Positions 775 to 63,599 of a stretch of 63,599 nt of DNA are shown here, one piece after another. The notes below the pieces were generated by a model. That model made no database searches. It saw nothing but the letters and a program-made list of their open reading frames with translations, and was not told the origin of the DNA. This DNA comes from a virus: IMG/VR virus record IMGVR_UViG_3300045988_069679, positions 1 through 63,599 of that record. One strand, 5' to 3'. A program made the translations under genes and the position numbers. Positions within the stretch are counted from its first letter, which is position 1. Each line of letters begins with the position of its first letter.

Positions 775-1102
775 TAGCTTTCTCCTTACTAAATTGCCAT
801 TCTAGCTTAGTATCCAATCCATGAATATAGTGGTTTCCTTGAAGATTATCAAAGTATTCCTTCACAAGAGGTCTAGTCATTTCCCATTTCTCTTTTGCTG
901 TGAACTCTGTTGAGTTATAAATCTGCAAGTATTCTGAGCGTAGGCTAGAGCGTTTAGCTCCCTTAGTAATTTCAATGAGCTGTTCTCTCTTACGATTTAA
1001 AAAGAATACTCCAAAACTACAAGCAGTAGTAATTAATAGAGTTAAACCTGTAACTACTGTTTGGTCTTCTAGGAGCTTTAATACAATACTATTATTACCC
1101 AT
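752..1102 (-). CDS. Putative holin / lysis membrane protein (single N-terminal TM helix)
   Basis: ORF track 752..1111. TM segment [20 protein letters not shown]. The gene ends 22 nt inside the lysin start. ATG 1102 (AGGTGG, 5 nt spacing) is preferred over GTG 1111. Confidence 0.5.
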
Positions 1103-1424
1103 ATAGACCACCTGTTTCTATTTCTAGGATTGGGTCTTCTCCACCTTCTGCAAGTTTCTCAAGGTCTTTAAGGATTTCCTCTTTACCTTTACCCACACAA
1201 GGCATCTCAATAACCTTTTCTTCTGGAATAGGTGTTGGTGTAGGAGTTACTCCACTACCATTACCTTTTCCATTGTCAAGGCTACAGTCAAAGTCAATTT
1301 GTATTCCATCACACTGACCATCTAATTGCTCACAAGTTGCTTTAGGAATCTGTGAATAACGTTTAGACCAGTCAATGTATGAAATACCACAGAGTTTATC
1401 TGCTTCATCTAATACATAGACCAT
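1095..1424 (-). CDS. Hypothetical late protein with Cys residues and a TPTPTP linker
   Basis: ORF track; tightly packed between the CHAP gene and the holin candidate. Confidence 0.6.
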   Translation of the reverse strand: MVYVLDEADKLCGISYIDWSKRYSQIPKATCEQLDGQCDGIQIDFDCSLDNGKGNGSGVTPTPTPIPEEKVIEMPCVGKGKEEILKDLEKLAEGGEDPILEIETGGLYG

Positions 1425-13235: not shown

Positions 13236-13714
13236 TTAGCTAATCTCCCTGGTATCTTAACTGTGCCCTTACTTCCCTGTGCATACAGATAATTTCTTCC
13301 TGGAGCTGTGTCCTTGGAAGTGTAATGAGCTGTTCCTGAACCTCTTCTCCCTGATGGTCTTTGTGCTTTATAGATACCATAGAATCCACTAGTTGAATCC
13401 ACAAGATTCTCACTATCACCCACAGTATCAAAAGCTGTAAAGATAAAAGGGAAAGCAGGGTTGTACTTGTAACCCTTAAACATATAAGTATTTACATAGT
13501 ACCGTTCTTTTCCTCTTTTAGTTGGAGGATAATCATTTCTATCAGCATACACAGAGAAGCCATCACCAATCTTCTTCATCTTGATTGAACGAACCATACG
13601 ACCTGTTTTCACAGAGCCTATAGCCTTGGCTTCTAGCATACCTGTCACAGTAAAGTCTACAAACTCTTTTGCAAACTCTATCCCTTTCCAGTCATGAATA
13701 TCAATCGTGGTCAC
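13232..13714 (-). CDS. HK97 gp10-like head-tail joining protein
   Basis: Motif VKTGRMVRSI resembles the TGxLrxSi signature of the HK97 gp10 family; neck-module position. Confidence 0.5.
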   Translation of the reverse strand: MTTIDIHDWKGIEFAKEFVDFTVTGMLEAKAIGSVKTGRMVRSIKMKKIGDGFSVYADRNDYPPTKRGKERYYVNTYMFKGYKYNPAFPFIFTAFDTVGDSENLVDSTSGFYGIYKAQRPSGRRGSGTAHYTSKDTAPGRNYLYAQGSKGTVKIPGRLAK

Positions 13715-14201
13715 GAGTAATCACCCCCTGTAATTGTTTCACATAAGGCTTACACTCTAAGAGTAGCTGTTCACTTTCACGTCCAGCTAATCTCTCACCA
13801 GTTAATTTCACGTCCCAGCAACCAGGAAAAATTTCATACGCTCTACTAGCTACCACTTTCCAAAAGAGATAACCAGCATCTTCTGGGCAACTAAATCTGT
13901 TACACCTTGTAGAAATTCTCTGTAATATGTAATACCCATGCTTAATGTCAAAGTCACAATCATGGGATTGGTTATGTAATGAAAAATAAAATGTTTCTAG
14001 CTGTCTTGAAGTCTCTAAGCCATGCGTTGTTGTAGCATCACTTTCAGCACCTCTTGACGTTGGCATGTGGTCTACACACTTAATGTGTTCCACTTCTTCC
14101 CATAAACACTTCATTACTTGCCTACTATTCTCATCATAAGTGGGAGTAGCAGTACCTTGTCTCAACACAAGGATTTCCTTATTATTCCAAGGGAGAGCCA
14201 T
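13701..14201 (-). CDS. Head closure / neck protein
   Basis: ORF track; synteny between the connector and the gp10-like gene. Confidence 0.4.
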   Translation of the reverse strand: MALPWNNKEILVLRQGTATPTYDENSRQVMKCLWEEVEHIKCVDHMPTSRGAESDATTTHGLETSRQLETFYFSLHNQSHDCDFDIKHGYYILQRISTRCNRFSCPEDAGYLFWKVVASRAYEIFPGCWDVKLTGERLAGRESEQLLLECKPYVKQLQGVITRDHD

Positions 14202-48370: not shown

Positions 48371-48614
48371 TGAAGCATCAGACAAGTATATAGAGCTTGA
48401 GAAGTTGTATAAAGAGGTTGGTAAGGAAATAAAGGATACTCTTGACCACAGAAAGCTTAAGAAGCTCAGACGTAAACGTAAGCTCATTAGAGCTGAACAG
48501 AACATGCTTTACCCTTATATGGTCAACACAGGTTATGTAGCTTACACAGAGCATGTACTAGGTCTAAAGGGTAATCAAGCCCTATATGGTAGATATATAA
48601 GAGGTAAGAAATGA
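48342..48614 (+). CDS. Hypothetical small basic protein (90 aa)
   Basis: ORF track 48321..48614; GGAGAGGAG upstream of the ATG at 48342. Confidence 0.55.
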   Translation: MKTTQNLTADEASDKYIELEKLYKEVGKEIKDTLDHRKLKKLRRKRKLIRAEQNMLYPYMVNTGYVAYTEHVLGLKGNQALYGRYIRGKK

Positions 48615-48898
48615 TAGACTTAGAAATTTTAAGAAGAAAGGCTAAAAAGGGTATCTGGTTTCCTAAACAGACTCCACGGTGGGTTGAGTTGTTTGGTGTG
48701 AGATGCCTAGCCATAGGATTCTATAGAGGTAATGAGAGACGTGTACTCTTTATTGCTGAGAAGCCTACACCAAAGTTTCATAGTGGTCATAAGATTTTTA
48801 GGTTTATCTTATCTCTAGAAGCTAGATGCTATGAGTTACCATTCACAGGACAAGTAGACTTAGGTACAGAGATGTTCCCTAAAGGGTTTTATGTATAG
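48611..48898 (+). CDS. Array-2 paralogue a (95 aa; VLFIAE...FHSGH; ends KGFYV)
   Basis: ORF track; ATGA coupling. Confidence 0.7.
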   Translation: MIDLEILRRKAKKGIWFPKQTPRWVELFGVRCLAIGFYRGNERRVLFIAEKPTPKFHSGHKIFRFILSLEARCYELPFTGQVDLGTEMFPKGFYV

Positions 48899-48907
48899 GA
48901 GTGTATC

Positions 48908-49213
48908 ATGGAAACGCTAAATGAATTAATGAAAATCATAGATGAAAACTTAGATGATTGTTTTTGGACAGCTAAGAATCCTAAAAGGTGTGTACTCAAT
49001 AAGTATTATGGTTTATGGAATATACCTGGGTATGTTGTTGAAATTTTTGATAGAAGTTTTGATATGGAGTTGTTATTCATAGCTGATATACCAGATAGTA
49101 CAATGTTTCATCATGGCTCTCATATTTTTGATACAAGGTGCTTTAAAGATAGATGCTTGTGGATAGACTATAAAGATATAACTATAATAAAAATAGAGGG
49201 ATTCTATATATGA
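48908..49213 (+). CDS. Array-2 paralogue b (101 aa; LLFIAD...FHHGSH; ends EGFYI)
   Basis: ORF track; AGGAG RBS. Confidence 0.7.
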   Translation: METLNELMKIIDENLDDCFWTAKNPKRCVLNKYYGLWNIPGYVVEIFDRSFDMELLFIADIPDSTMFHHGSHIFDTRCFKDRCLWIDYKDITIIKIEGFYI

Positions 49214-49503
49214 CAGTTATGACTAGACAAAGAGCTTTAACTGTGCTGACTGATGACTTATTTATTGGAGAATTTGTCCATTTTAAGTCACCATGCTTTA
49301 GAGCCTTAAATATTAGAGATGGAGTGAAGGGTTATGCTAGAAAGTTACACCCAAAAGGCTACCTATTCATAGCTGATGAGAGACAAAAGAAACAAATGTA
49401 TGGCTATGGTTTTATACTTGAAAGGAGTGAACTATTAGCTAGACGTTGTTTATTATTAGAAGATGGAGCTGTTAGAATCATAGAGAAAGGACTATGGATA
49501 TGA
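49210..49503 (+). CDS. Array-2 paralogue c (97 aa; YLFIAD; ends KGLWI)
   Basis: ORF track; ATGA coupling. Confidence 0.7.
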   Translation: MTVMTRQRALTVLTDDLFIGEFVHFKSPCFRALNIRDGVKGYARKLHPKGYLFIADERQKKQMYGYGFILERSELLARRCLLLEDGAVRIIEKGLWI

Positions 49504-49805
49504 CAAATGTAGAAAGAGTAGTAAAAGCTATTGAAAATAGAGGGTTTACCATTACTCATTACCCTTGTAGGGCATCTATAGAGATATATGAAGCTGATTT
49601 TAAACGTTTTGAAGGTAATGTGGTAGAACTTGAAAATGCTACGTCTAGAACTTCACTTAAATATACTCTATTTATATCTGATGAGGAAGACCATGTCCAA
49701 TTCCACAATGGGTTCTCCTTGATTAGTGACGATAGTATGCCAGACGTATTATGGTTTAAAGAAACTGCTGATAAAATTACTAGACTTGAAGGATTTTATA
49801 TTTAA
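49500..49805 (+). CDS. Array-2 paralogue d (101 aa; TLFISD...FHNG; ends EGFYI)
   Basis: ORF track 49494..49805. The second ATG (ATGA overlap, better SD spacing) is preferred. Confidence 0.65.
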   Translation: MTNVERVVKAIENRGFTITHYPCRASIEIYEADFKRFEGNVVELENATSRTSLKYTLFISDEEDHVQFHNGFSLISDDSMPDVLWFKETADKITRLEGFYI

Positions 49806-49815
49806 GGAGATAGGT

Positions 49816-50109
49816 ATGGAAAAACACCAAGAGGAGTATATAAAATTGCTAGATGATAAGTTTAATATAGCTGGTGAACCTAGAATAGCTACATATAATA
49901 GACACAGACATACTATTGAGAGTGGTATTGCAGTAGAGATAAAAAACTTTGGTGATGGTGTAGTAGTATTCATAGCAGACAATCCAAAAGGATACTTACA
50001 TAAGTTCGCAACAGAGTTGGATAGTGAGCATTTACCTCCTTGTGTATGGCTTACTAGATGGTCTGACAAAGATTTAGAGTTACACCTAGACAAAGGATTC
50101 TTCATATAA
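49816..50109 (+). CDS. Array-2 paralogue e (97 aa; VVFIAD; ends KGFFI)
   Basis: AAGGAG RBS 6 nt before the ATG at 49816. The ORF-track start at 49726 overlaps the previous gene. Confidence 0.7.
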   Translation: MEKHQEEYIKLLDDKFNIAGEPRIATYNRHRHTIESGIAVEIKNFGDGVVVFIADNPKGYLHKFATELDSEHLPPCVWLTRWSDKDLELHLDKGFFI

Positions 50110-50112
50110 AAC

Positions 50113-50140
50113 AAAAAGAGCCAATTAAGGCTCTCTTTTT
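50113..50140. terminator. Bidirectional intrinsic terminator between the convergent early and late blocks
   Basis: AAAAAGAGCC-aattaa-GGCTCTCTTTTT. Confidence 0.8.
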
Positions 50141-50996
50141 ATTTATTCTTTTTATCATCACAGTTACAGTCATCTTTAGGAATCTCTGTGAACTTCAAGC
50201 AGTCAGGTAGGTCTTTACCTTCAATGATAGGAACATACTCAACCTTGAATTGGTGAAGTCTGAACACACCGCTAGCTTGGTTATCAGGTACAACTCTTAC
50301 CTTAATGTATTGACCAGCAGGTACAATGATTGTATCAGACATTTCCATAGCACCATCAGAGATACCAGTCATTTGCCAATGCACAGAGCGCTGTTTAACC
50401 ATATCTGTGGTATAGCTTTCTCCACTGTGGTAGACTACAATCTGAATAGTGTTATCCTCTTGTGGATTCAATGTAGTACCATCAGCACACCAACGTAGGA
50501 ACACACGGTACTGTCTATCTGTGAGCTGTCTACGCTTATCATCATTCTCAAAGTCCACACCAGTAGTAGAATCCATGTAGAGGTCAATGTCATACTCTTT
50601 AGTAATAGGAGCATAGAATGTAGCAGAAGATACAGCAGAGTTACGAGAGTAGTTCGTGTGTACCTTACCCATATCTCCAATAGATGCTACATACTCACCC
50701 ATACACTGTACCATATCCCACAAAGCACAGATATTCTCAATGTAGTGGTTAAGCTGACAAGCTAGTTTCTTAATGAATGATGAGAAGAACTTAGGGTTAT
50801 AGCACTTCTGTGATTCTGCCATACAAGCAAAACGTCCTACACCCTTGTTGTTTTCCTCCACAAGCCTATCACAGTCAGCAATAGGAATGTCTTCACAGTC
50901 ACAGTTATCATACCAGCATCTATCTTTAGGATTCTCATTGTAACTCTTGAAAGATGCTTCATTAAGTCTTGTGTTTTTATTATCTTCGTAAGCCAT
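50139..50996 (-). CDS. Cys-rich adaptor-domain protein (285 aa) with a beta-rich C-terminal domain; last gene of the late block
   Basis: N-terminus DRCWYDNCDCED..CDRL...ACMAESQKC...LACQL..ICALWDMVQC. C-terminus PDCLKF...DDCNCDD. Confidence 0.7.
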   Translation of the reverse strand: MAYEDNKNTRLNEASFKSYNENPKDRCWYDNCDCEDIPIADCDRLVEENNKGVGRFACMAESQKCYNPKFFSSFIKKLACQLNHYIENICALWDMVQCMGEYVASIGDMGKVHTNYSRNSAVSSATFYAPITKEYDIDLYMDSTTGVDFENDDKRRQLTDRQYRVFLRWCADGTTLNPQEDNTIQIVVYHSGESYTTDMVKQRSVHWQMTGISDGAMEMSDTIIVPAGQYIKVRVVPDNQASGVFRLHQFKVEYVPIIEGKDLPDCLKFTEIPKDDCNCDDKKNK

Positions 50997-52372
50997 TAGC
51001 TACCTATCTTTCCTTGTCTCTTCCAATTACCATCTTTACGGATATAGTTACCTCTAACTACTCCAGAGTCAGCAGGTTCTACATACCCAAACCTAGGGTC
51101 TCTAGGAATAACTTGTCCTACTTGCTCCTCATTTATTTCAGTAGAAGCTCTCTCCCAAAGGCTTTTGTGACGTTTAGACATGTGGATATTCTTAGTTACA
51201 AAAGATTTCCATGAGCCACTATTTCTAATAGCCCAAGGTCTAATCTTAGCTACCCTATCATAGAGGATTGTAATGTCTCTAGTCTCAGTAGGCTCTTTTG
51301 GTTTTATAGGGTCTGCATAAGAGAACACCTCACCACGAGAAGCATTACCAAAGAATCCTAACTCAAAGGAATCTCCTACTTTCTCTTTACCTGGGTTATA
51401 GATGATTCTGTTTCCAGGTCTATTACCCAAGGCATTGAAGTTGATTGTACTACCAATACCAGCAAGCATGAATGAACCTCTTGGAATATCAGAAGTACCT
51501 TCATAGTGAGCACCATTAGTATCACCAATACGACCAGAACCCATAAAGGTAAGTCCTGAACCTGGAGGTCTTAATAGCACAGAGTTGCTATCACCAAAAC
51601 CTGCTCTTACACTTTGGTTAAAGTCAATATCGGCTACTGCTGTAGAAGCTAGAATCTTTACTGGTCTATTGGTGTATTTCTCCACAAAAGAGAATGAGAA
51701 GTCTACTGAGTAAACATCATAGAACCATAGACCAATACCAGTACCATCATAAGGAGCTATCCACACACCTGGAGTTGCTCCAGCAAAGCTTACCACCTCA
51801 TAATCATTGATTCTAATAACCAAGTTTAAGGTCTTACCACTTAGTGTATAAGATACCTCAGTAAGCTCGAAGGTCATACCTGGATACATTCTACCAGAAG
51901 AACCTTCTTTACCTGAGTAGTTATACTCTCTGTTACCATGATAGGTAATAGGTCTTGCTAGAAGTTCTGCTTCTTGGTCATTTGTGAAAATCTTTACTGG
52001 GTTAAAGTAGTTATATCCAGAAGAATAAGTGCTATACTCTTCCACACCAGAGATAGAGCCATACTCAAAGTAGTTAGGGTTTCTTCTTAAGCTATCTACC
52101 CTCTCAGCATTTCTCTGTGCTACAGCTAAGCCATTATAGTATTTTCTAAGTAAGTAGTTATAAGATTGTACATCTTGTCTACTATTATAGTCACTCTCAG
52201 AAGGTGTTCTCTTTTGAGTCTCATACAACTCCCTAGCAGTATAGCCTTGGAAGGTCTTCTGTGTCTCAGTAATTGCTGTACTAAACTCATCATAACCAAC
52301 AGTCACAGGAGAAGCTAAGTCTTGTCCTGTTTGGGCATCTTTATAATAGATATTATAATTAAACTTAGCCAT
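50996..52372 (-). CDS. Adhesin/lectin-like receptor-binding candidate (458 aa); paralogue of the C-terminal domain of 55534..56829
   Basis: N-terminus NYNIYYKDAQTGQDLASPVTVGY is MucBP-like. Shared motifs ADIDFNQS, PRGSFMLAGIGSTINF, FFGNASRGEV. Confidence 0.6.
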   Translation of the reverse strand: MAKFNYNIYYKDAQTGQDLASPVTVGYDEFSTAITETQKTFQGYTARELYETQKRTPSESDYNSRQDVQSYNYLLRKYYNGLAVAQRNAERVDSLRRNPNYFEYGSISGVEEYSTYSSGYNYFNPVKIFTNDQEAELLARPITYHGNREYNYSGKEGSSGRMYPGMTFELTEVSYTLSGKTLNLVIRINDYEVVSFAGATPGVWIAPYDGTGIGLWFYDVYSVDFSFSFVEKYTNRPVKILASTAVADIDFNQSVRAGFGDSNSVLLRPPGSGLTFMGSGRIGDTNGAHYEGTSDIPRGSFMLAGIGSTINFNALGNRPGNRIIYNPGKEKVGDSFELGFFGNASRGEVFSYADPIKPKEPTETRDITILYDRVAKIRPWAIRNSGSWKSFVTKNIHMSKRHKSLWERASTEINEEQVGQVIPRDPRFGYVEPADSGVVRGNYIRKDGNWKRQGKIGS

Positions 52373-53331
52373 TAGCTGATTCCTCCTGCAAGGTCATTCT
52401 CTGTGCTACCATTGTTTGTTCTAATGAAGGCATCACCATCAGGAGTACCACCAAAGAGGTTGATATTACCTGTAGCAAGGTGTCTATTAGGTTTAAGATT
52501 ACCTTTGAAGATAGTATCTCCAGTTTGTTCCCAAGCTCCAGAGCCTTTAAGGTCTTCAAGTAGCTTAGTAAAAGCATCTTTAAGCTCATTGTACTGATTC
52601 ACAGTGACATAGTTATTAAGGTCAGGCTGAGGAATATCCACAGAGTTTCCATTAGAAATGGTTAGCCTATTGTTACTGATAGAGAGAGTCTGATTATCAT
52701 TATCCCTCTTAGCTTCAAGCACACCAAGTCTACGCTTAATATCTGCATCATTGTATGGTGTAGCTGTAGGAATATCTACCTCTCCACCTCCATTAGATAA
52801 TACAATCTTGTTACCACTCTTACTGATAGTTTGCTTATCATTAGGGAGAGTAACATTATTACCTCCATCAATGGATAGCACACGAGTGTTAGAGTTAAAG
52901 TTAAGGTTCTTACGAAGGATAGTATCATAGTTACCAATACCTTGTACTTTAACATTATCTCCACTAACCTCTATGATTTTCCAGATACCTCTATTGATAA
53001 CTGTTTGGTCAGCCCAATGGTCTTCTGCTGTGTCACCTACTTTAACTCCATCAGGGTTTCTAAAGTTGTTTTTCTTAACAGTGACTATAGTGTTTGATTC
53101 AGCTCTTCCTGGAATATCTCCATTGTAGAATCTGTGTGTAGAGCCACTAGGTAAGGCTACTGTGTTACCTCCACTAATTGTAAGGTTATTGCCATTCACA
53201 GACAATGATTGGTTATCCCTATCTTGCTTACTTTCTAAAGCAGTTAGTCTAGCCTTTAGTTGAGTATCATCATAGGCTGTCACAGTAGGTGTAGCTTGTT
53301 GTTCATTCTTGATATATGTAGTCTTTGACAT
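52372..53331 (-). CDS. Fibre protein (319 aa) with LTISNGN-type repeats and a conserved C-terminal NINLFGGTPDG...NDLAGGIS module
   Basis: ORF track; repeats NNLTISGGNTVALPSG, VLSIDGGNNVTLPNDKQT, RLTISNGNSVDIPQP. Confidence 0.7.
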   Translation of the reverse strand: MSKTTYIKNEQQATPTVTAYDDTQLKARLTALESKQDRDNQSLSVNGNNLTISGGNTVALPSGSTHRFYNGDIPGRAESNTIVTVKKNNFRNPDGVKVGDTAEDHWADQTVINRGIWKIIEVSGDNVKVQGIGNYDTILRKNLNFNSNTRVLSIDGGNNVTLPNDKQTISKSGNKIVLSNGGGEVDIPTATPYNDADIKRRLGVLEAKRDNDNQTLSISNNRLTISNGNSVDIPQPDLNNYVTVNQYNELKDAFTKLLEDLKGSGAWEQTGDTIFKGNLKPNRHLATGNINLFGGTPDGDAFIRTNNGSTENDLAGGIS

Positions 53332-54968
53332 TAGTTCAACCTCTGAATCTTCTCATATCTGTTATTGGTAGGGTTTTTAAGGTAAATACGGTTTTCTGAC
53401 GTTTGCATATAGAAACTTAAACCTGAAAGAGTTAGTGTGAGTTTACCAATAAGGGTTTCACCTTTTTTAACTTCAACCACAATAGGCTCTCCTGAGTCAA
53501 TCTCCTCTTTAGTTAGGAAGTGTGTATAATACTCTGTATGTGAGCTTAATTGTACACCCCAAACTAGTTTTGGTCTTATATTAATAACAACTTTATTATT
53601 AGAATCTTTCCAGATTGCAGTTATAATACTCTCAATTTTAATGTCCTTACTTAGCATTGCAAAGTTATTAGCAACTACAGTAGAAGCATCTGTTGAAGTA
53701 CCTGATATTCTAAAGTTATTCCCTGAAAAATCAGCGTTTGGTAAACCATCATACGTGTAGTTACCTGTGTAATTAAATACTATTCCAGCTTCTAAGAATG
53801 ACCCTGTTTGGGGAGTACCATCATTATCTACTGCATAGGCAATTCCATCTTTAAGACCAGAGTTATATCTTTTGTCAGGTGTAGCAGGTAATGCTCCATT
53901 ATTACCATTAGTACGGTAAGGACGTGAGACAATGGTATTAGTAGCCATATCAATACTAAAGTTATTATCACTATCAAGTAGTAGTCCATTACCTTTAGCT
54001 TTGTACTTGGTATCCTTATCCTCTTTTGCTTCTAGTGCATTAAGTCTATTGACCACAGAGGAATCATCATAAGGCTGTGTACTATTAGGTTGTGGTAGCT
54101 CTACCTCACCTCCGCCATTAGAGAGAATTAGTTTATTCCCTTCTTTTCTAATAGTCTGTTTGTCATTAGGTAGAGTTACATTATTACCATTAGAGATAGT
54201 TAACACACGAGAGTTATTGTCTAGTGTTAGATTCTGATTATCTCTATCTTGTTTGGCTTCTAAGGCATCAATTCTATCATATAGGGTCTTACCAGGGTAA
54301 GGTCTAGCTTCTAGGTCATCTAGCCTTCTCTTAACATCTCTATCATCATAAAGGGTATCCTTATCAGGTTTATCCTCTAAGGCTTTAACTCTAGCTTTTA
54401 AGGCTGTATCATCATAGGCTAAACTAATTGTGTCCTTATCCTCAAATTCAACCTCTTTAGGAGCACCATTCACAAAGGTATAGGTAAGCTTAACCTTATT
54501 CCCTTCCCTAGATACTGTCACACCACTCACAAAGTTATCAGCCTTATCTTCCACAGCTTGAATACGTCTACGGAGTTCAGCATCATTATACACAGTGTCT
54601 CTATCTTCTGGTAGGTTGATTGCATTACCATTGCTGATAGTGATTGTTCTACCATTGATTGAGAGGTTCTGTGTATCATTAGGAAGGGTTACTGTATTCC
54701 CTCTTGTAATTGTAAGCTCTCTTGTGTCATTATTTAATTCAAGATTCTGTGGCTTCTGTACCGTACCTCCAGCACCTCCCATAAGAATCCAATGAGTTCT
54801 ATCAGGAGATAAGGCATACATGTTTCCATCAGGAGTTCTGAATAAGTGGTCAAAGTCACCCATGAAAGGGTCAGGAAGACTATCCACAGGAGCAATCCAA
54901 GTGTCTTTAGGGTAAGTGCAATCTCTACAAAATGTATTGGGATTTCCTCCACAAGAATAACAACCCAT
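53331..54968 (-). CDS. Fibre / receptor-binding protein (545 aa); N-terminal GCYSCGG..FCRDC cluster, shared fibre modules, unique C-terminal domain
   Basis: The module NFVSGVTVSREGNKVKLTYTFVNGAPKEVEFEDKDTISLAYDD also occurs three times in the 1171-aa protein. Confidence 0.7.
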   Translation of the reverse strand: MGCYSCGGNPNTFCRDCTYPKDTWIAPVDSLPDPFMGDFDHLFRTPDGNMYALSPDRTHWILMGGAGGTVQKPQNLELNNDTRELTITRGNTVTLPNDTQNLSINGRTITISNGNAINLPEDRDTVYNDAELRRRIQAVEDKADNFVSGVTVSREGNKVKLTYTFVNGAPKEVEFEDKDTISLAYDDTALKARVKALEDKPDKDTLYDDRDVKRRLDDLEARPYPGKTLYDRIDALEAKQDRDNQNLTLDNNSRVLTISNGNNVTLPNDKQTIRKEGNKLILSNGGGEVELPQPNSTQPYDDSSVVNRLNALEAKEDKDTKYKAKGNGLLLDSDNNFSIDMATNTIVSRPYRTNGNNGALPATPDKRYNSGLKDGIAYAVDNDGTPQTGSFLEAGIVFNYTGNYTYDGLPNADFSGNNFRISGTSTDASTVVANNFAMLSKDIKIESIITAIWKDSNNKVVINIRPKLVWGVQLSSHTEYYTHFLTKEEIDSGEPIVVEVKKGETLIGKLTLTLSGLSFYMQTSENRIYLKNPTNNRYEKIQRLN

Positions 54969-55534
54969 TAGTTAATACCTCCTGCCAAGTCATTTTCAGT
55001 GCTTCCATTATTAGTACGGATAAAGTATTGTCCATCTGGTGTTCCACCGAACAAGTTAATGTTACCTGTGGCAATGTTACGATTAGGAACAAAGTCACCA
55101 TCTAGTCCACCTTGCCAAGCTCCACTAGCTTGTAAGTTATTTATAATCTTATTTAAAGCTCTCTTAAGCTTCTCATTCTCTGCTCTCAAATCAGCATCAT
55201 TGTAGGGTTGTGAAGGACTTGGAATATTCCCTGTAAAGCTAATAGTACCATCTTTAGAGATACTAATTAAGTTACCTGCTTTATAAGTAGGAGCAGTAGA
55301 ACCTCCACCTCCAGCATTATTAGCTAACCAACATAGCTGATTAGATACATTCTTATTGAAACACCACTGTGAGTAGGCAAACTTAGCTGTCTGGTCTACA
55401 ATCTCACACATTTGGCTATCCCTAAGAACTAGAGCGTGCATTTTAATTTTATCATCATTCTGTGCTAAGAGTGATTGGCAAGCTGTCTTACCAACTACTA
55501 TATCTTCACACTGACAGTTTACACAATCTGACAT
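54968..55534 (-). CDS. Cys-rich adaptor-domain protein (188 aa) ending in the NINLFGGTPDG...NDLAGGIN module
   Basis: N-terminus SDCVNCQCED..ACQSL...MCEIV...QWCFNK..LCWL. Confidence 0.7.
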   Translation of the reverse strand: MSDCVNCQCEDIVVGKTACQSLLAQNDDKIKMHALVLRDSQMCEIVDQTAKFAYSQWCFNKNVSNQLCWLANNAGGGGSTAPTYKAGNLISISKDGTISFTGNIPSPSQPYNDADLRAENEKLKRALNKIINNLQASGAWQGGLDGDFVPNRNIATGNINLFGGTPDGQYFIRTNNGSTENDLAGGIN

Positions 55535-56829
55535 TAGTTATCTCCTAAACAATCAAAATCACATGACATTAAGTCACATTCTTCTATAGGGGGTATAGGT
55601 TTTGGAGGTTCATGAAGGTCTACAGTTTCCCCTCTAAAGTTATTACCAAAGAAGTCCATTACCCAGTTACTTGGCTCTTCTGCATCACCATTCTGTTCTG
55701 TGGCATCAGGAGCACCACCTATAATCTCAAAATCAATCTTGGTAGCCACACCAGCCATAAGCATAGACCCTTTAGGTACAGATTCCTCATATTCATAGGC
55801 ATTATTGTAGGTACTCTTGAAATATGCTCCATCTTTTACAATATCAGCATCATTAGGAATACTATAGATAGTTTGGCTGTTATTAAAACTTGCTTTAAAA
55901 CTTTGCAACCAGTCAATATCACTGATAACCATTACATTCATAAGGTTAAGAGGTGCTCCACTATCATCAGTAAATTCAAAAGAACCTCTAACTTTATAAA
56001 TCTTATACATATCAAAAGATATACCACCAGAAGAGCTATAGATTTGTAAGTATCTATCACTAAGACCAGTCTTGTAGAAAGACTCTCCTCCAGCTTTAGA
56101 GAAGAACTCACTGACAGTTATTTTTACATGCACATTCTTACCAGAGGTAGTTCTAGCTACATTTCTTAGTGTGTAGGTTAAACCTGGAGCTAATTCACTT
56201 CCTAGGAATTTATGAGCTTTGTTATCTCTTCCAAAGCCTATACCTCCTACCACATAGTCCACACCCTCTTTAGAGGTTGCTAGTGAGAACTTAGAGTAGT
56301 AATCATAACTACCAGCTCTTGAAGGGTCAAAGTCACCAGAGATATAAATACCGTCTATCTCTTGCTTGTTAGGGTCATTCTTCATTTCCTCTAAGCGCTT
56401 CTTAGCTTTCTCTAATCGTTTGAGCTGTTCTTCATAGATGGCTTTAGCTTCGTTGTAGATACCTCTTTTATCATTAGGAGTATTAGGCTCTTTCTGCTTG
56501 TACTTCTTAATCATGTCCTTGTTACGCTTCACTGTGATTGAGTTAGCTTCAAGGATATTAGCTTTCATACAATGTAGGGTTACACACAGTGATTTAATCT
56601 TCTTCTGTAAACACACCATACGTTGCATTACATCACAGATAGTCTTGATAATCTTTCTTAATCTACACCAAAGCCTAAATACACCCTTCTGTGTATTAGG
56701 AACAATATCACACTGCTCAGAGTCTTTGATTATATCACCAGCACGCTTAATATCTTCTTGTGATTCATTTTTGTCACAGTATTTACCAGTGATTACTTTA
56801 TCATCACAACGACAATCACAAACGTCCAT
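55534..56829 (-). CDS. Cys-rich adaptor domain fused to a coiled coil and an adhesin/lectin-like domain (431 aa)
   Basis: ATG 56829 has AGGAGG 4 nt upstream. N-terminus VCDCRCDDK..YCDK...QCDIV...LWCRL..ICDVM..VCLQ..LCVTLHC. C-terminus ECDLMSCDFDC. Confidence 0.7.
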   Translation of the reverse strand: MDVCDCRCDDKVITGKYCDKNESQEDIKRAGDIIKDSEQCDIVPNTQKGVFRLWCRLRKIIKTICDVMQRMVCLQKKIKSLCVTLHCMKANILEANSITVKRNKDMIKKYKQKEPNTPNDKRGIYNEAKAIYEEQLKRLEKAKKRLEEMKNDPNKQEIDGIYISGDFDPSRAGSYDYYSKFSLATSKEGVDYVVGGIGFGRDNKAHKFLGSELAPGLTYTLRNVARTTSGKNVHVKITVSEFFSKAGGESFYKTGLSDRYLQIYSSSGGISFDMYKIYKVRGSFEFTDDSGAPLNLMNVMVISDIDWLQSFKASFNNSQTIYSIPNDADIVKDGAYFKSTYNNAYEYEESVPKGSMLMAGVATKIDFEIIGGAPDATEQNGDAEEPSNWVMDFFGNNFRGETVDLHEPPKPIPPIEECDLMSCDFDCLGDN

Positions 56830-56837
56830 AAGACCTC

Positions 56838-57200
56838 CTAGCACTTATCACAGCTAACCTCACAAGGAGTAACTGGTTGTTCTTTTAATACACTCAGAAC
56901 CTCTGCAATACTGTCATTCTGACATTTAACAGTACCACACAAGCTATCTACTTTCTTTTCTAAGCACTCTAGCTTTCTAATGATATAGCACAAGAAACCT
57001 ACAATGTTTTTGATTACACACCACACACCATAGAAGGCTTGTCTAATAGCTTCTTGAAGATTACACCACTCAGAGGTTGAGATTTTCCTCATTGCTGGTC
57101 TAATCTTTAGGTCATTTAGCTCTAGTAACTTAGCACAGTTCTCTGGTCTTGGCTCAACTTTCTCACACTCACAGTGCTTATTTAAACAGTTATCTGCCAT
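56838..57200 (-). CDS. Stand-alone Cys-rich adaptor-domain protein (120 aa, 13 Cys)
   Basis: ADNCLNKHCECEK..NCAKL...EWCNL...VWCVI..FLCYI..LECLE..LCGTVKC...PCEVSCDKC; Cys counted from the supplied translation. Confidence 0.7.
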   Translation of the reverse strand: MADNCLNKHCECEKVEPRPENCAKLLELNDLKIRPAMRKISTSEWCNLQEAIRQAFYGVWCVIKNIVGFLCYIIRKLECLEKKVDSLCGTVKCQNDSIAEVLSVLKEQPVTPCEVSCDKC

Positions 57201-57905: not shown

Positions 57906-58436
57906 CTAAGCATATAATCCAACAAAGTTGATAATGAATCTCTTACCAATCATAGCTTGTGTAAATCCTGTACTTCGTACCTTACCACCTCTATCCAACC
58001 AGAAAGAGATAGGTTCATTTCCAATGTACTGTTGAATCTCTAAGAACTCAATAGGAATAGGTGCTCCTGACGGTAATTCAGCAATCACAGCACTATGACC
58101 AATAGTACCTCTCACAAAACCGTCTACCTTAAAGATTCCAAAGGAGTTTACTGGGTTGTGAGATAGCACAGGAGGTCTATTATCATAGTTAAAAATATTA
58201 GGTACATTGAATCTACCACTATACTTTGTTAGTGTTTGTGCTTTCTTATTATTTTCAGCAATAGCCTTATCTACTTCACCCTTTGTGTAGTGCTTTTCAA
58301 AGGCTACATCAGCATTGATTGTGAATACCTCTTCCCCATTCTCTTGTGACTTAACCACAGTAAGTCCATCAGTAGTAGATTTTAGGTTGTAGAGTGTATC
58401 CTTATCTTCTAATTTATTGTAGTTCTTTGTTGTCAT
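57906..58436 (-). CDS. Receptor-binding knob candidate (176 aa), paralogue of 59381..59776
   Basis: N-terminus MTTKNY. The C-terminus GKRFIINFVGLYA parallels NRRMIINIVGLWSYTE, a C1q/TNF-like terminal strand pattern. Confidence 0.6.
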   Translation of the reverse strand: MTTKNYNKLEDKDTLYNLKSTTDGLTVVKSQENGEEVFTINADVAFEKHYTKGEVDKAIAENNKKAQTLTKYSGRFNVPNIFNYDNRPPVLSHNPVNSFGIFKVDGFVRGTIGHSAVIAELPSGAPIPIEFLEIQQYIGNEPISFWLDRGGKVRSTGFTQAMIGKRFIINFVGLYA

Positions 58437-58691: not shown

Positions 58692-59384
58692 TTATACCTT
58701 ATCTAACTTACCAGTAGGGTATGGGTCATCAGTGAACCATGAAGCACTAGAGAAACGTACATCATTGAAGGGTTCAGTAGGAATTACCTCATCAAAAATC
58801 AGTCTCATAAAGTTGGAATCATCAGTTCCTCCAACATACCAACTACCATATACCTTTTGTTTAGTTTGGTCATCTTGGAAAATCATTCCTTGTTGAGAGT
58901 ATGTAGCTCTAAACCCTTGAATAATATCACCTGGAACAATAATTCTACAACCTCTATCAGCTTGGTGATTCTGAGGAACATATCCTGGCTTACCTCTACC
59001 AACAATACCTAATCTACCAAAAGAACCACCAACTACTTTAAAGGTTACAGTATCATTCACACGTCTCATAGCAATATACTGACCTTTAGGTACACTTACT
59101 GTCTTCATCTTAACCCAACCAGTGTCACCTCGTAAGATTTTCCAACCTGTATTACCACCTTCTGATGTCTTTATCCACTTCACAGCACCATTGGTTACAT
59201 CTAAGTCGATATATGTAGTACCTATATGTCCTGTAACTTTACCTTCTGGGAATCCATGACCACTAAGCTCAGTAGGTAGTTCCACAGTATTACCATTACT
59301 AATAGAAAGGTTCTGACCATCTAAGGAAAGTGTTTGATACTCTTTTGATGGCCCTTGAGCTATATTATAATTTTTACTTGTCAT
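58692..59384 (-). CDS. Fibre / receptor-binding protein (230 aa)
   Basis: Start MTSKNY chosen by analogy (ATGA overlap). NLSISNGNTVELP repeat; GHGFPEGKVTGHIGTTYIDL..GAVKWIKTSEGGNTGWKILRGDTGW is typical of Gram-positive phage fibre proteins. Confidence 0.65.
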   Translation of the reverse strand: MTSKNYNIAQGPSKEYQTLSLDGQNLSISNGNTVELPTELSGHGFPEGKVTGHIGTTYIDLDVTNGAVKWIKTSEGGNTGWKILRGDTGWVKMKTVSVPKGQYIAMRRVNDTVTFKVVGGSFGRLGIVGRGKPGYVPQNHQADRGCRIIVPGDIIQGFRATYSQQGMIFQDDQTKQKVYGSWYVGGTDDSNFMRLIFDEVIPTEPFNDVRFSSASWFTDDPYPTGKLDKV

Positions 59385-59776
59385 TCTGTATAACTCCATA
59401 ACCCTACAATGTTAATAATCATTCTTCTATTGAACACAGTAGATATATCACCTTTAATATGACTAATCTGAACTTCTCTTGAATTTTTCTCTATGTATAA
59501 GGCAAAAGATACTTCTCCAATATTGACAGATTCTTCTATTAGCTCTACAGGAGTAGGTGTGTTTCCTTCAATTACACCAAGTTTTTGTCCACTTTGGTAT
59601 GTCCTAGCAAGAGAAAAATCGCATTTAGCAATGCCAAACCCTGTGGCATCATTGTAGAATAATTTAGATTTTCCAGCACTTTGGCTGTTTTGAAGAGTAA
59701 GTTCTGTATCATAATATGTTATATCAAAAGTTTTTAGAGTAGGGTCTCCATATTTAATATAATTTTTAGTTGACAT
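59381..59776 (-). CDS. Receptor-binding knob candidate (131 aa)
   Basis: N-terminus MSTKNY. The start codon abuts the (TA)10 tract and has no SD. Confidence 0.6.
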   Translation of the reverse strand: MSTKNYIKYGDPTLKTFDITYYDTELTLQNSQSAGKSKLFYNDATGFGIAKCDFSLARTYQSGQKLGVIEGNTPTPVELIEESVNIGEVSFALYIEKNSREVQISHIKGDISTVFNRRMIINIVGLWSYTE

Positions 59777-59837: not shown

Positions 59838-62800
59838 CTACCCTTTCTTCTGAACTTTGTAAGAGTTAATTGAAGCAGTCACACCAGTGAATGTAGCTTC
59901 TACATAACCTTGCTCAACTCCACCTTTAGAGATTGAGATTCTAGCTGGCTCTGTACCTTGCAACTCAGCTAGGCTAAGTGCTTTACGGTATTTAACCACT
60001 TCATTTTCATTCTCTGGTTCATATACAAGGAAGGCTTTCACAGTAGAACCTGTATAGAAGAACTCTACATACACAAACTCATTGATAGAATTTCTGTGTG
60101 AACCTTGAATTTCATCTCCAGTAGTACCAGAGTTGAATCCAACCTTACCTGCCACAGTAGTTTCTTCACCACCAAATGGTGATTTAACTTTAGCTGAGAC
60201 ATTACCAGTGAGGACTAACTCTTTAAGTGGGTCAGTAGTTGCTTCTGATGCTAGGTTGATTACACCCTCACCTTGACTTAATGTCACAGCTTTGGTAGTT
60301 TTAGCTAGTTCATATTCAACTTCTGGTTTATTTTCAAGAACTTCAACTCTACCTCTAAGAGCACTATCATCATAGGCTACTGATACAGTATCATTGTCTG
60401 TGAATGAGACTTCTTTGTTATCACCATTTACCATAGTGTAAGTCAACTTCACAGTGTTACCTTCTCTTGATACACCTACGTTAGAGACAAAGTTATCAGT
60501 CTTACCTTCAAGAGCAGTAATCTTGTCACGTAACTCTTTATCATTATAGACTGTATCTTTATCCTCTTTAGTCTCAAGGGCTGTCAATCTAGCAGTCACA
60601 GCAGAGTCATCATAGATTGTATCCTTGTCAGGTTTAGCTTTAAGAGCTTCAACGTCTTTAGTCAAGGTGTTAATCTTGTTCTCATGCTCATCTACCATAT
60701 TGTCAGTAGTAGCAATGCTATCCTTGTTAGCTTGGATAAGCTTCTTAACTTCTGTATCATCATACACTGTATCTTTATCAGGCTTAGTTTCCAAAGCTGA
60801 GATACGAGCATCTAGTGCTGTGTCTTTGTCAGTCAACTCAGATACTTTAGTTTTCAAAGCTGAATCATCATAGATAGTGTCTTTATCTTCTTTAGATTCA
60901 AGAGCACCAATACGGTTTTCCAACTCAGTATTCTTAGTATCTTGTGCTTGTTTATTGTTATCTGCTTTTGTATCTACAGCTTGAATCTGAGCTTTAACCT
61001 CAGCATCATTGTAGATTGTGTCTTTGTCTTCTTTAGCTTCTAAAGCAGTAAGACGTTCTTTCACAGCAGTGTCGTCATAAGCAAGAGTTACTGTATCAGA
61101 ATCTTCAAACTCAACCTCTTTGTTAGAACCATCAACATAACTATAAGTCAATTTGACTTTTTTACCTTCTTTGTTCACAGAGACACCAGATACAAAGTTA
61201 TCTGTTTTAGCTTTGAGTGTGTTGATTTCATTAGTCAACTCTTGGTCTTTGTTAGCCAATTCTGTGTCTTTAGCCTTAAGCTCTTCCACACTAGCTTTCA
61301 AAGCACTGTCATCATATTTAGGAAGGGTAACTGCATTACCTCCACTGATTGACAATGTATGGTCTTCAAGACTAAGAGTTTGATTATCATTATCAACCTT
61401 GTTTTCCAAGGCAGTAATCTTACCTTCAATCTCTTTGTCTTTAGCATCAAGCTCTGCATTTTTAGCATCTTGTGCTTCTTTGTTAGCAGGAACAGTAGTC
61501 TCAAGAGCAGTAACTCTACCAGCAAGAGCTGTATCATCATATACAGTATCTTTATCTGGTTTAACTTCTAAGGCTTGGATTCTATTTTCAAGCTCAGTGT
61601 TCTTACCATCTTGAGTAGTCTTGTTACCATCTACCTTGCTCTCTAAGGCTGTAATTTGCCCTCTGACAGCACTATCATCATAGATGGTATCTTTGTCTTC
61701 CTTGTTCTCTAAAGCTTCAAGACGAGCGTCTGTGTGCGTTCTAAGGGCAGTTAAGTCATTCTCAACTCCTTGGATTGCATTTTCATTAGCTTTGATACCT
61801 TGCTTAACTTCTGTGTCATTGTAGATAGTATCTTTATCTTCCTTGTCTTCCAAGGCTTTGATACGAGTCTTCAATGGTTCATCATCATAGGCAAGGGTAA
61901 CAGTATCACTATCCTCAAACTCTACTTCACTAGAAGAACCGTCCACACGAGAGTAAGTAAGTTTTACCTTACCATCAGCCTTAGACACAGCAACATTATT
62001 GATAAAGTTATCTGTTCTATTTTCAAGGGCTGTAATCTTCTCATCTTGTGCTGTATTCTTAGCTTCGATTTCAGTAAGTTTATTCTCAACTACTGGTTTA
62101 GCTTCTTCAAGAACATTCACACGAGTGGTAAGAGCATCATTCTTACCTTCTAAGAAGTTCTTCACAGACTCAGTATAGTCATTAGCTTGTTTAATACTCT
62201 CTTTCACAGAAGAGTCATCATATTGTGGTAGGTCAACTTCATTACCATTAGAGATAGAAAGTTTGTTACCAGCAATAGCCAATGTCTGTTTGTCTGAATC
62301 TTCCTTAGATTCCAAAGCCTTAACTCTTGTATCAAGTCCTTGTGCTTTGTGGTCAATCAAGTCAACTGTTTTACCAAGAGTTTCACCCAATGTTTCAAGA
62401 GCAGTTTCTACTTCTGCATCTTTCTTCTTAAGGGCTTCAATCTCAGTATCTTGTGAACCATCTTTCTCAGCTTGTGCTTTAGATTTACCCTCAGCATCTT
62501 TAGCCAATTTGTCAGTTCTATTCTCAAGCTCAGTCACAGCATTAGTAATGTCTTCTACCTCTGTGTGTACTGCTTTGACTTCTTCCTCAAGTCCACCATC
62601 TAGGAGTTTAAGTTGGTCATTAATTTCATTAATTGAGTTATCTAGCTCACTAGTCAACTCTTTCAAGCCTTGAGAATCTTTTTGTAAGTCTGCAATAGCC
62701 TTACCATGCTCTTCATCTAGGTGTTGCACAGACTCATTTAAGTCTTTAACAGACTCTCCTAAGTCATCAAGAGCACCATCTTGACGTTCATTCTCTTTCT

Positions 62801-63353
62801 TAAGCTCAAGAACTTTAGCATCAATAAGGTCTACTGTTTTCTCAACAGCCTTACCTACAGCTTCTAGAGCATCATCTACTTGGTCATCATGAGCTTTCAA
62901 AGCTTCTAACTTAGTGTCTTGCTCAGAGTCTTTAGCTTCAATAGCTGAAAGTTTAGCATCATGCACAGCATCTTTAGCTTCCAAAGCAGATACTTTAGTA
63001 TCCAACTCTTTGTCTTTAGCTGTCAATGAATCTAATACTGCTTGGAATGAAGGAGAAGTAGTCACAGTGAACGTTACATCACCATTCTCATTATGCACTT
63101 CTTTCTTCACAGTGATTAGACCTTCACCTACTACATCAATTACTTGTGGAGACAAGTCAATGGCATCATAGCCACTTCTGTCAGGACGTAGTACATAAGC
63201 ACGTTTGTCTTGACCTGCATTGTCTTTAGGCACAAGGTAGATATAGTTTAGTTCAGCTGTTTCTTTAGGAGGTAGCTCACCAACAATCTTAACGATTGGG
63301 TCTTTTTTAAGTAGCTCCATTAAGCAACCTAAACCAACTTTAACTTTTGTCAT
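59838..63353 (-). CDS. Long repetitive fibre protein (1171 aa)
   Basis: ATGA overlap with the lysin stop. Many ALE(A/N/T)K.DKDT(I/V)YDD heptad-like repeats, three copies of a 60-aa NF(I/V)(N/S)xVxVxxxGxxVKLTY...FED(S/N)DTV module, LSISGGNAVTLP repeats. Confidence 0.85.
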   Translation of the reverse strand: MTKVKVGLGCLMELLKKDPIVKIVGELPPKETAELNYIYLVPKDNAGQDKRAYVLRPDRSGYDAIDLSPQVIDVVGEGLITVKKEVHNENGDVTFTVTTSPSFQAVLDSLTAKDKELDTKVSALEAKDAVHDAKLSAIEAKDSEQDTKLEALKAHDDQVDDALEAVGKAVEKTVDLIDAKVLELKKENERQDGALDDLGESVKDLNESVQHLDEEHGKAIADLQKDSQGLKELTSELDNSINEINDQLKLLDGGLEEEVKAVHTEVEDITNAVTELENRTDKLAKDAEGKSKAQAEKDGSQDTEIEALKKKDAEVETALETLGETLGKTVDLIDHKAQGLDTRVKALESKEDSDKQTLAIAGNKLSISNGNEVDLPQYDDSSVKESIKQANDYTESVKNFLEGKNDALTTRVNVLEEAKPVVENKLTEIEAKNTAQDEKITALENRTDNFINNVAVSKADGKVKLTYSRVDGSSSEVEFEDSDTVTLAYDDEPLKTRIKALEDKEDKDTIYNDTEVKQGIKANENAIQGVENDLTALRTHTDARLEALENKEDKDTIYDDSAVRGQITALESKVDGNKTTQDGKNTELENRIQALEVKPDKDTVYDDTALAGRVTALETTVPANKEAQDAKNAELDAKDKEIEGKITALENKVDNDNQTLSLEDHTLSISGGNAVTLPKYDDSALKASVEELKAKDTELANKDQELTNEINTLKAKTDNFVSGVSVNKEGKKVKLTYSYVDGSNKEVEFEDSDTVTLAYDDTAVKERLTALEAKEDKDTIYNDAEVKAQIQAVDTKADNNKQAQDTKNTELENRIGALESKEDKDTIYDDSALKTKVSELTDKDTALDARISALETKPDKDTVYDDTEVKKLIQANKDSIATTDNMVDEHENKINTLTKDVEALKAKPDKDTIYDDSAVTARLTALETKEDKDTVYNDKELRDKITALEGKTDNFVSNVGVSREGNTVKLTYTMVNGDNKEVSFTDNDTVSVAYDDSALRGRVEVLENKPEVEYELAKTTKAVTLSQGEGVINLASEATTDPLKELVLTGNVSAKVKSPFGGEETTVAGKVGFNSGTTGDEIQGSHRNSINEFVYVEFFYTGSTVKAFLVYEPENENEVVKYRKALSLAELQGTEPARISISKGGVEQGYVEATFTGVTASINSYKVQKKG

Positions 63354-63599
63354 TTAGTTTCTCCTTTTTGGATTTTAATAATACCATCTTTGTCCGTTGT
63401 GAATGTTCCATTAGTGTTCATCACACCATCATTATCCACAAAATACCAACCATCTCTACCCTTCACAAAGGTGTTTGTTTGCATATCACCATTAGCTGGG
63501 TCTAGATAGTACCACTTCTCTTTGTCTTTTAACCAACCAGTCTTCATAGCACCTTGTTCTTGGAAATAATACCACTTTCCTCCAACATTTTTCCAGCCA
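63350..63599 (-). CDS. Endolysin, 3' part (choline-binding repeats); continuation of 774..1. Bases 63545-63599 duplicate 1-55.
   Basis: ORF track fragment MKTGWLKDKEKWYYLDPANGDMQTNTFVKGRDGWYFVDNDG shows GW..WYY choline-binding repeats, in frame with the 1..774 translation. Confidence 0.9.
   Translation of the reverse strand, partial: GWKNVGGKWYYFQEQGAMKTGWLKDKEKWYYLDPANGDMQTNTFVKGRDGWYFVDNDGVMNTNGTFTTDKDGIIKIQKGETK
63545..63599. repeat. Terminal overlap, copy 2 (identical to 1..55)
   Basis: Read directly. Confidence 0.9.

Follow-up and report, generated by a model that had tools for sequence, protein, structure and literature searches.

A new family of cysteine-rich helical domains in four paralogous siphophage proteins, probably anchors of exchangeable tail-tip adhesins

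Behind the holin gene of the 63,599-nucleotide IMG/VR record IMGVR_UViG_3300045988_069679 (the window, by which the whole stretch is meant), which stems from an uncultured siphophage, there is a cassette of seven genes for proteins of 120, 431, 188, 545, 319, 458 and 285 amino acids (aa), and the 120-, 431-, 188- and 285-aa proteins are paralogues that share a cysteine-rich helical domain (the Cys domain). This domain is a new family without a Pfam entry or a solved structure, and it is probably the baseplate-anchoring, oligomerising stem of interchangeable tail-tip adhesins or receptor-binding proteins (RBPs), whose oligomeric state and cysteine chemistry we infer. Open reading frames (ORFs) and translations of the cassette agree with those of an earlier, sequence-only reading of this DNA, and stop and start codons overlap (TAATG) at six of the seven cassette junctions.

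Four paralogues with one ordered cysteine pattern

The sequence-only reading had aligned the N-termini by eye on an ordered cysteine pattern and had spoken of four or five cassette proteins. The pattern is indeed collinear in four of them, with cysteines at positions 5, 10, 12, 22, 46, 61, 71, 79, 88 and 93 in the 120-aa protein (plus 113, 117 and 120), at 4, 6, 8, 18, 40, 55, 65, 73, 82 and 87 in the 431-aa protein (plus 418, 423 and 427), at 4, 7, 9, 19, 43, 58 and 68 in the 188-aa protein, and at 27, 32, 34, 42, 58, 65, 80, 90, 98, 170, 266, 277 and 279 in the 285-aa protein. Sequence comparisons agree with this: in BLASTP, the 120-aa protein finds the 431-aa protein with E=2e-13 and the 188-aa protein with E=5e-8, and the 285-aa protein weakly with E=0.038; the domain profile matches the 120-, 431- and 188-aa proteins with E-values from 1e-46 to 3e-32; and a hidden Markov model (HMM) built without any 285-type sequence matches residues 26-108 of the 285-aa protein with E=1.5e-5, while giving no further match among the 37 minus-strand late proteins tested. 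The paralogy of the four proteins is therefore real. Also the C-terminal clusters that had been pointed out are present, with three cysteines each in the 120-, 431- and 285-aa proteins.

For the 545-aa protein, the proposed fifth member, the assignment fails, as no HMM of the domain matches it. Its N-terminus begins with MGCYSCGGNPNTFCRDC, just as had been described, and this is an element separate from the Cys domain, a CxxC-x7-CxxC motif followed by DTW(I/V)APVD. C3, C6, C14 and C17 are invariant in 11 of 11 N-terminal variants of the clade to which the phage belongs, and with these two nearby conserved CxxC pairs the segment has the spacing of a putative zinc ribbon or zinc knuckle. Residues 28-88 resemble the N-terminal part of gp83 of the Lactococcus phage AM6 (E=9e-7). 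A second position that belongs to this observation is L097 16824..17210. AM6 gp83 itself starts with MALNTCDNGC. The N-terminus of the 545-aa protein is possibly a second kind of cysteine-based anchor.

Anatomy of the domain

The Cys domain comprises about 75-110 residues and has three parts, which are an N-terminal Cys knuckle (C-x(1-4)-C-x-C-x9-C, with x7 instead of x9 in the 285-aa type), a helical hairpin and a long heptad helix, the overall ordered pattern being C-x(1-4)-C-x-C-x9-C ... C ... (W)C-x9-C. Seven cysteines form the core (C5, C10, C12, C22, C46, C61 and C71 in the numbering of the 120-aa protein), and the long form has in addition C79, C88, C93 and the C-terminal cysteine cluster. 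With 51 diverse domain sequences, AlphaFold2 gives a confident model (predicted local distance difference test, pLDDT, 84.7) in which a coil bearing the knuckle is followed by a helix of residues 19-42, a turn at C46 and an unbroken helix of residues 45-107; with 13 sequences only, pLDDT was 54 and the model was not usable. Across the alignment, residues 47-105 show a strong 3.5-residue hydrophobic periodicity, which indicates that this part forms a heptad coiled coil. C61 and C71 lie within the hydrophobic stripe, and C79, C88 and C93 lie beside core positions.

The sequence-only reading had not recognised the domain, and the searches lead to the same result. Pfam and PHROGs gave no match for the Cys domain in the four proteins, and there was no relevant match among PDB sequences with phmmer and hmmsearch. 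Foldseek with the domain model found nothing below E=1 in the PDB, only generic helical hairpins, and in the BFVD it found only two uncharacterised proteins of the domain's own family.

Fixed slots and exchangeable heads

An exhaustive profile search of 1.84 billion representative proteins resulted in 71 clusters, and most of their representatives have the domain right at the start, from residue 1-3 on, with unrelated sequences downstream of it. A repetitive protein of 1073 aa (P0081) was discarded as a spurious low-complexity match. Pfam recognises BspA_v (n=8), GbpC (n=5) and MucBP (n=1) in family proteins, all of which are lectin-like modules of streptococcal surface adhesins, and antigen I/II-type heads (BspA_v/GbpC) score above the Pfam gathering threshold in proteins of orthologous slots and related ones, namely P0073, P0082, P0084, P0080, P0085, P0087, P0097 and P0109. 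The 431- and 285-aa proteins of the window themselves have no Pfam match. The 188-aa protein shares its C-terminal tip domain with the 319-aa protein of the cassette (E=3e-25), and this tip has 61-64% identity with the C-terminal end of "appendage" proteins from the pneumococcal podophages Cp-1, Cp-7 and SOCP. The variable middle of the 431-aa protein (residues 125-420) is in turn paralogous to residues 71-367 of the 458-aa protein (E=6e-25). An N-terminal anchor with a distal C-terminal domain, as had been proposed, holds for nearly all clusters, except that in P0108 and P0109 the order is reversed to GbpC head, poly-Pro linker, Cys domain and tip, with the Cys domain internal and C-terminal to the head. 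The Cys module can therefore be regarded as the constant element, with the heads as its cargo.

Among the 73 related loci of the clade that were examined, every complete locus has the four domain genes in the same order, except for three (L064-L066) in which the slot-2 ORF was not picked up. The encoded proteins have 120 or about 290 aa in slot 1, 407-433 or 114 aa in slot 2, 152-199 or 80 aa in slot 3 and 276-285 aa in slot 4, and between slots 3 and 4 there are one to three highly variable Cys-free fibre genes. In some slot-2 orthologues the identity is 98-99% for the N-domain and 100% for the C-terminal cluster but only 54-55% for the middle, and in P0075 the conserved ends enclose an unrelated middle, in front of which there is a Pro-rich linker of about 50 residues. 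A short, headless version has been found for every slot. The 120-aa protein, which had been regarded as the domain alone, is such a case: it does lack a head, but it is a deletion derivative of an approximately 290-aa, lectin-bearing slot-1 orthologue (P0073, with a BspA_v head), of which it keeps not only the N-domain but also the C-terminal PCExxCDKC. As the headless versions keep both ends, it can be argued that both chain ends are structurally required, and as the long form keeps its C-terminal cluster of two to three cysteines together with the three extra stem cysteines, the conservation suggests that the cluster belongs with the N-domain and that both ends are part of the anchor. Extra stem cysteines and C-terminal cluster are associated in a Fisher test with a rough regular expression, which is descriptive only, the sequences being phylogenetically non-independent.

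Several lineages contain slot-3 "stubs" of 74-82 aa, in which the Cys domain is followed by a short helix ending in ...LKGG (L010 1412..1636; slot 3 of L074, L075 and L076; P0031, P0052, P0104 and P0105). These stubs lack C71 and often also C22, and their recurrent occurrence suggests that they are functional placeholders and not pseudogenes.

Position in the tail

A distant subfamily is encoded on phage contigs of 46-53 kb that share with the window homologous genes for capsid, adaptor, tube, tape measure protein (TMP), distal tail protein (Dit) and Tal, with tail proteins of 28-33% identity. In 13 of 15 such loci, TMP and Dit are followed by one to three Cys-domain paralogues and then by Tal (the two remaining loci end at a contig edge), and some of the paralogues between Dit and Tal carry the Cp-1-like tip of the 188-aa type. 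The distant Dit homologues are 28-32% identical to that of the window (E down to 5e-46) and have in common with it a Cys-rich insertion (about residues 161-252) directly behind the ring domain, with 20-22 cysteines per protein. The Dit of the window contains CCNGLPNCNNICECCEQDC. In phage p2, the corresponding Dit "arm/hand" (residues 147-188), inserted behind residue ~147, anchors the N-terminus of the RBP (PMC3893620). Gene order and the insertion point to Dit as a likely docking platform of the Cys-domain proteins, which would place these proteins at the tail tip of the virion. The N-terminal region of the distant subfamily (P0124-P0136) is covered by phrog_35125 (E down to 1e-26), a PHROG without annotation that has no match to any of the four window proteins.

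The nearest cultured relatives of the phage are Lactococcus phages of the P087 group, with 25-26% identity of the terminase and 26-28% of Dit, and AM6 of this group has the same Dit with fewer cysteines. Downstream of Dit it encodes four consecutive small proteins (gp80-gp83), each of which starts with M-A-x-x-x-C. Of these, gp81 matches the Cys domain (HMM E=7e-9 in the locus; hhalign 78%, E=1.8e-5), and it adjoins gp80, which is the RBP of the P087 group as predicted by HHpred (PMC5371800). AM6 gp82 is annotated as a virion structural protein, and so are P087-group genes after the lysis cassette, so that the position of the domain genes behind the holin in the window is no argument against a structural role.

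Cysteines across the virion

The four domain proteins contain 46 cysteines in about 1029 residues, as compared to 1.23% Cys in the rest of the proteome. However, the cysteine richness is not a peculiarity of the cassette but a virion-wide trait of the lineage, with 20 cysteines in Dit and 19 in the head-tail adaptor homologue, the most Cys-dense large structural protein. The AM6 homologues of such proteins have roughly half as many cysteines. Several other structural proteins have 5-10 cysteines (Table 1).

Within the domain, C22 and C71 have been lost jointly in at least four lineages (P0031/P0034, P0092, P0104/P0105 and P0131/P0132), and AM6 gp81 likewise has neither of them. C71 is at times lost alone, C22 never. 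This joint loss suggests that C22 and C71 may form a pair or contribute to one common site. In some subfamilies C46 is replaced or supplemented by a cysteine 6-12 residues upstream, and the odd number of core cysteines would agree with links between subunits or with metal sites on the axis. A radical-SAM-like reading of the CxxxCxxC at the C-terminus was rejected, since the spacing varies among the paralogues (CxxxxCxxxC, Cx10CxC).

Interpretation and alternatives

The earlier idea of a common docking module fits well with what has been found, that is the N-terminal site, the distal swaps, the fixed slots, the Dit-Tal position, the Cys-rich Dit and the Cys-domain relative beside the predicted RBP of the Lactococcus P087 group, and on these grounds of sequence and gene order the module would work as follows. 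Several paralogues per phage, four in the clade, would dock side by side on Dit, with the Cys-rich insertion on the galectin side of Dit as the docking surface. As cargo they would carry either a Cp-1-type appendage tip or lectin-like heads that were taken over from adhesins of streptococci (BspA V domain, GbpC, MucBP), and the heads would sit on Pro-rich or coiled-coil linkers and be exchanged by recombination. The cysteines probably keep the anchor together, both inside a subunit and from one subunit to the next, through structural metal sites, through disulfides formed after release, or through both. Several points weigh against such a baseplate anchor. The co-occurrence with a Cys-rich Dit may reflect the common descent of the whole tail module, the domain genes of the clade are not neighbours of Dit but close the late operon behind the holin, and AM6 gp80 resembles the domain only weakly (hhalign 5.8%). 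Also, a monomer model cannot reveal the oligomeric state or the cysteine geometry, the association of extra stem cysteines with the C-terminal cluster rests on few independent lineages, and a C-terminus that returns to the N-terminal anchor would be unusual for phage fibres.

A more far-reaching version, in which the anchors, the zinc-knuckle-like N-terminus of the 545-aa protein and the Cys-rich arm of Dit would form one metal-cluster or disulfide-linked scaffold, with chains fastened at both ends, host lectins as exchangeable loops and a chemistry that extends to the adaptor, is doubtful. Unlikely, too, is that the domain is mainly a self-contained folding or trimerisation unit, a metal- or disulfide-stapled coiled-coil stalk whose attachment is left to the C-terminal cluster or to a partner. 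The long predicted heptad helix with its strong periodicity would suit such a stalk. The RBP stems of TP901-1 are three-helix bundles (PMC3893620), the C-terminal clusters are kept even in headless variants, and in P0108 and P0109 the domain is internal, between GbpC head and tip; yet trimerisation alone would give no reason for conservation in four paralogues with a fixed order, nor for keeping a headless protein of 120 or 114 aa. A trimerising stalk and a baseplate anchor are not mutually exclusive.

It is quite unlikely that the proteins form fibres on the head, neck or collar, with the Cys-rich head-tail adaptor homologue as their anchoring point, as the paralogues are found exactly between Dit and Tal in the distant loci and the P087-group relatives lie beside the predicted RBP (PMC5371800), although the high Cys density of the adaptor homologue, the position of the cassette after the lysin, the holin and the 1171-aa repeat protein, with its weak match to a head-decoration PHROG, and a Cp-7 tip homologue among genes annotated as "head fiber" and "appendage" would fit with this. 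Very unlikely is a release of the proteins at lysis as soluble lectins that, for example, bind glucan, saliva or wall polysaccharide, act as decoys or modify biofilm outside the virion. Such a role might be read from the genes downstream of the holin and from the relation of the heads to the host adhesin domains GbpC and BspA_v, but signal peptides are absent, overlapping TAATG codons link the genes to fibre genes, headless versions would be senseless for a soluble lectin, and neither the Dit-Tal position in relatives nor the structural annotation of the post-lysis genes in the P087 group agrees with it. All three alternatives are less well supported than the baseplate anchor.

If the Cys domain is such an anchor, it is the handle by which a widespread group of uncultured phages of human oral streptococci carries several swappable adhesins, and some of these adhesins descend from glucan- and glycoprotein-binding adhesins of the host itself. 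The domain would then provide a sequence signature with which receptor-binding genes of this lineage can be recognised, as well as a natural scaffold for swapping phage specificities. If also the scaffold existed, phages of Streptococcus, Lactococcus and related hosts would have a virion held together by thiols, which might respond to the redox state or the metals of saliva. This raises the question of cysteine or metal chemistry as a virion stabiliser in Gram-positive phages, for which the Lactococcus P087 group is a cultivable model.

The phage and its other genes

The window is the genome of a siphophage, circularly permuted and probably complete. The endolysin gene is divided between both window ends, from which it follows that the window is a circularly permuted whole genome, and the late operon on the minus strand runs from the terminase (about 22.9 kb) to coordinate 1, resumes at the far end and stops at 50139. 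The choline-binding lysin, the Dp-1-type holin and the Streptococcus-phage-like fibre modules point to a mitis-group Streptococcus as the host. The lysin with choline-binding repeats is an Amidase_2 or a GH25 enzyme in six metagenome contigs of 61-65 kb that are nearly identical, the catalytic domain alternating among close relatives (322 aa with Amidase_2, 340 aa with GH25). As the tail module encodes a Phage_lysozyme2 protein and a CHAP-like protein besides the endolysin, the particle probably carries at least two wall-degrading activities.

GenBank phages gave no megablast match to the cassette or to 25 kb of the window, tblastn against phages with the 431-aa and 285-aa proteins, P0124 and P0136 found nothing, and there was no match in IMG/VR scans with P0085 and P0089. 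Among the 185,579 representative bacterial genomes of GTDB no relative was found, and thus no sign of prophage copies. The contigs of P0083, P0115, P0097, P0125, P0136 and P0124 are short, yet adjacent paralogues are visible on them.

Motifs of the 1171-aa repeat protein recur in the 545-, 319- and 235-aa proteins, its length among relatives is 1171-1460 aa, and the match of its C-terminus to the head-decoration PHROG has E=0.006. Between its gene and the holin gene lie those of two weakly paralogous proteins of 131 and 176 aa (E=1e-6) with the same C-terminal ending (...INIVGLW and ...INFVGLYA). Five small tandem genes on the plus strand have products that all contain an (L/V)FIA(D/E) motif and end with GF(Y/F)(I/V) or GLWI; BLASTP is significant for one pair only (E=9e-7), and number and size (93-109 aa) of these genes differ among related contigs.

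Table 1. Positions of the cassette genes, their domains and other features in the window
Feature	Position	Strand	Remarks
Slot 1, 120-aa protein	56838..57200	-	long-form Cys domain and C-terminal cluster
Cys domain of the 120-aa protein	56880..57200		residues 1-107
CxxxCxxC cluster of the 120-aa protein	56841..56864		residues 113-120
Slot 2, 431-aa protein	55534..56829	-	ATG at 56829; ORF reaches to GTG at 56844
Cys domain of the 431-aa protein	56530..56829		long form, residues 1-~100
C-terminal CDLMSCDFDC of the 431-aa protein	55549..55578		
Slot 3, 188-aa protein	54968..55534	-	no C-terminal Cys
Cys domain of the 188-aa protein	55319..55534		short form (7 Cys), residues 1-72
C-terminal tip domain of the 188-aa protein	54971..55198		
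545-aa protein	53331..54968	-	repeat-containing fibre protein
N-terminal CxxC-x7-CxxC of the 545-aa protein	54918..54968	-	
319-aa protein	52372..53331	-	Cys-free fibre protein; repeats in common with the 545- and 1171-aa proteins
458-aa protein	50996..52372	-	Cys-free; paralogous to the middle of the 431-aa protein
Slot 4, 285-aa protein	50139..50996	-	
Cys domain of the 285-aa protein	50667..50930		diverged, residues 23-110
C-terminal cluster of the 285-aa protein	50160..50201		C266/C277/C279
Dp-1-type holin, 67 aa	57200..57403	-	directly upstream of the 120-aa gene; stop overlaps the start of the latter (TAATG)
176-aa protein	57906..58436	-	
131-aa protein	59381..59776	-	
1171-aa coiled-coil repeat protein	59838..63353	-	"DKDT(I/V)YDD.." repeats and "L(T/S)ISNGN.V.LP" motifs
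Endolysin with choline-binding repeats	1..~720 and 63350..63599	-	divided between both window ends
Dit homologue, 368 aa	5528..6634	-	20 Cys
Cys-rich insertion of Dit	5879..6154		residues ~161-252
Head-tail adaptor homologue, 261 aa	14508..15293	-	19 Cys; CGCFDC, CGC, CCKCCDPCSC
Other structural proteins with 5-10 Cys	13701..14201, 11071..12426, 1095..1424	-	
Phage_lysozyme2 protein	2992..4245	-	tail module
CHAP-like protein	1427..2494	-	tail module
Five small genes in tandem	48611..50109	+	95-103 aa

Comparison with known systems

Among known systems, there is a likeness to the lactococcal RBPs p2 ORF18 and TP901-1 BppL, in which a conserved N-terminal module also precedes an exchangeable head, and in which the N-terminal shoulder or stem is held by the Dit "arm/hand" or by BppU (PMC3893620). 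Like in these RBPs, there are helices near a presumed symmetry axis and a Dit insertion just after the ring domain, and there would be several copies per baseplate. However, no sequence or fold similarity was found among PDB sequences and with Foldseek, and the Cys domain is all-helical with 7-10 conserved cysteines, has four paralogues per genome and a co-travelling C-terminal Cys cluster, and carries antigen I/II-type lectin heads instead of the jelly roll of p2 and TP901-1. With the P087 group (Teubervirus; AM6) there is a common lineage, with 22-31% identity of terminase, capsid, adaptor, tube, Dit and Tal, and AM6 gp81 and gp83 correspond to the Cys domain and to the N-terminal region of the 545-aa protein, respectively. 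Yet AM6 gp80-gp83 differ in having only 2-8 cysteines per protein, without C22 and C71, their genes lie before the lysis cassette, and no BspA_v- or GbpC-type lectin heads were seen in them.

In branched tailspikes, the T4 gp10-like N-terminal domains of CBA120 TSP2 and TSP4 and of G7C gp66 are homologous across adjacent RBPs and provide several specificities per particle. These are podo- or myoviruses of Gram-negative hosts, and their adaptor domains are not Cys-rich; the Cys domain, without a Pfam match, is of an unrelated fold and family. A precedent for a Cys-ligated metal cofactor is the iron-sulfur cluster of lambda gpL in a siphophage tail tip, a complex that is assembled in the cytoplasm (PMC10721106). 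There, however, four cysteines lie in one C-terminal domain of a hub protein and not in fibre anchors, and neither Pfam nor PHROGs gave a match to gpL-like families. The two Cx9C spacings of the 120-aa protein (C12-x9-C22 and C61-x9-C71) and the antiparallel helices are reminiscent of twin Cx9C (CHCH) proteins, but this assignment was rejected, as the first motif is mostly in a predicted coil, the motifs are separated by 38 residues and by a further helix, and the co-loss pairs C22 with C71, in contrast to the C1-C4/C2-C3 pairing of CHCH.

It is a classic and well-known design of phages to combine a conserved N-terminal anchor with heads that can be exchanged, so that the advance stays incremental if the thiol or metal scaffold is not real. 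New are the domain family itself, its Cys-rich helical architecture with the coupled C-terminal cluster, the fourfold paralogy with fixed slots, and the capture of antigen I/II-type lectin domains of the host.

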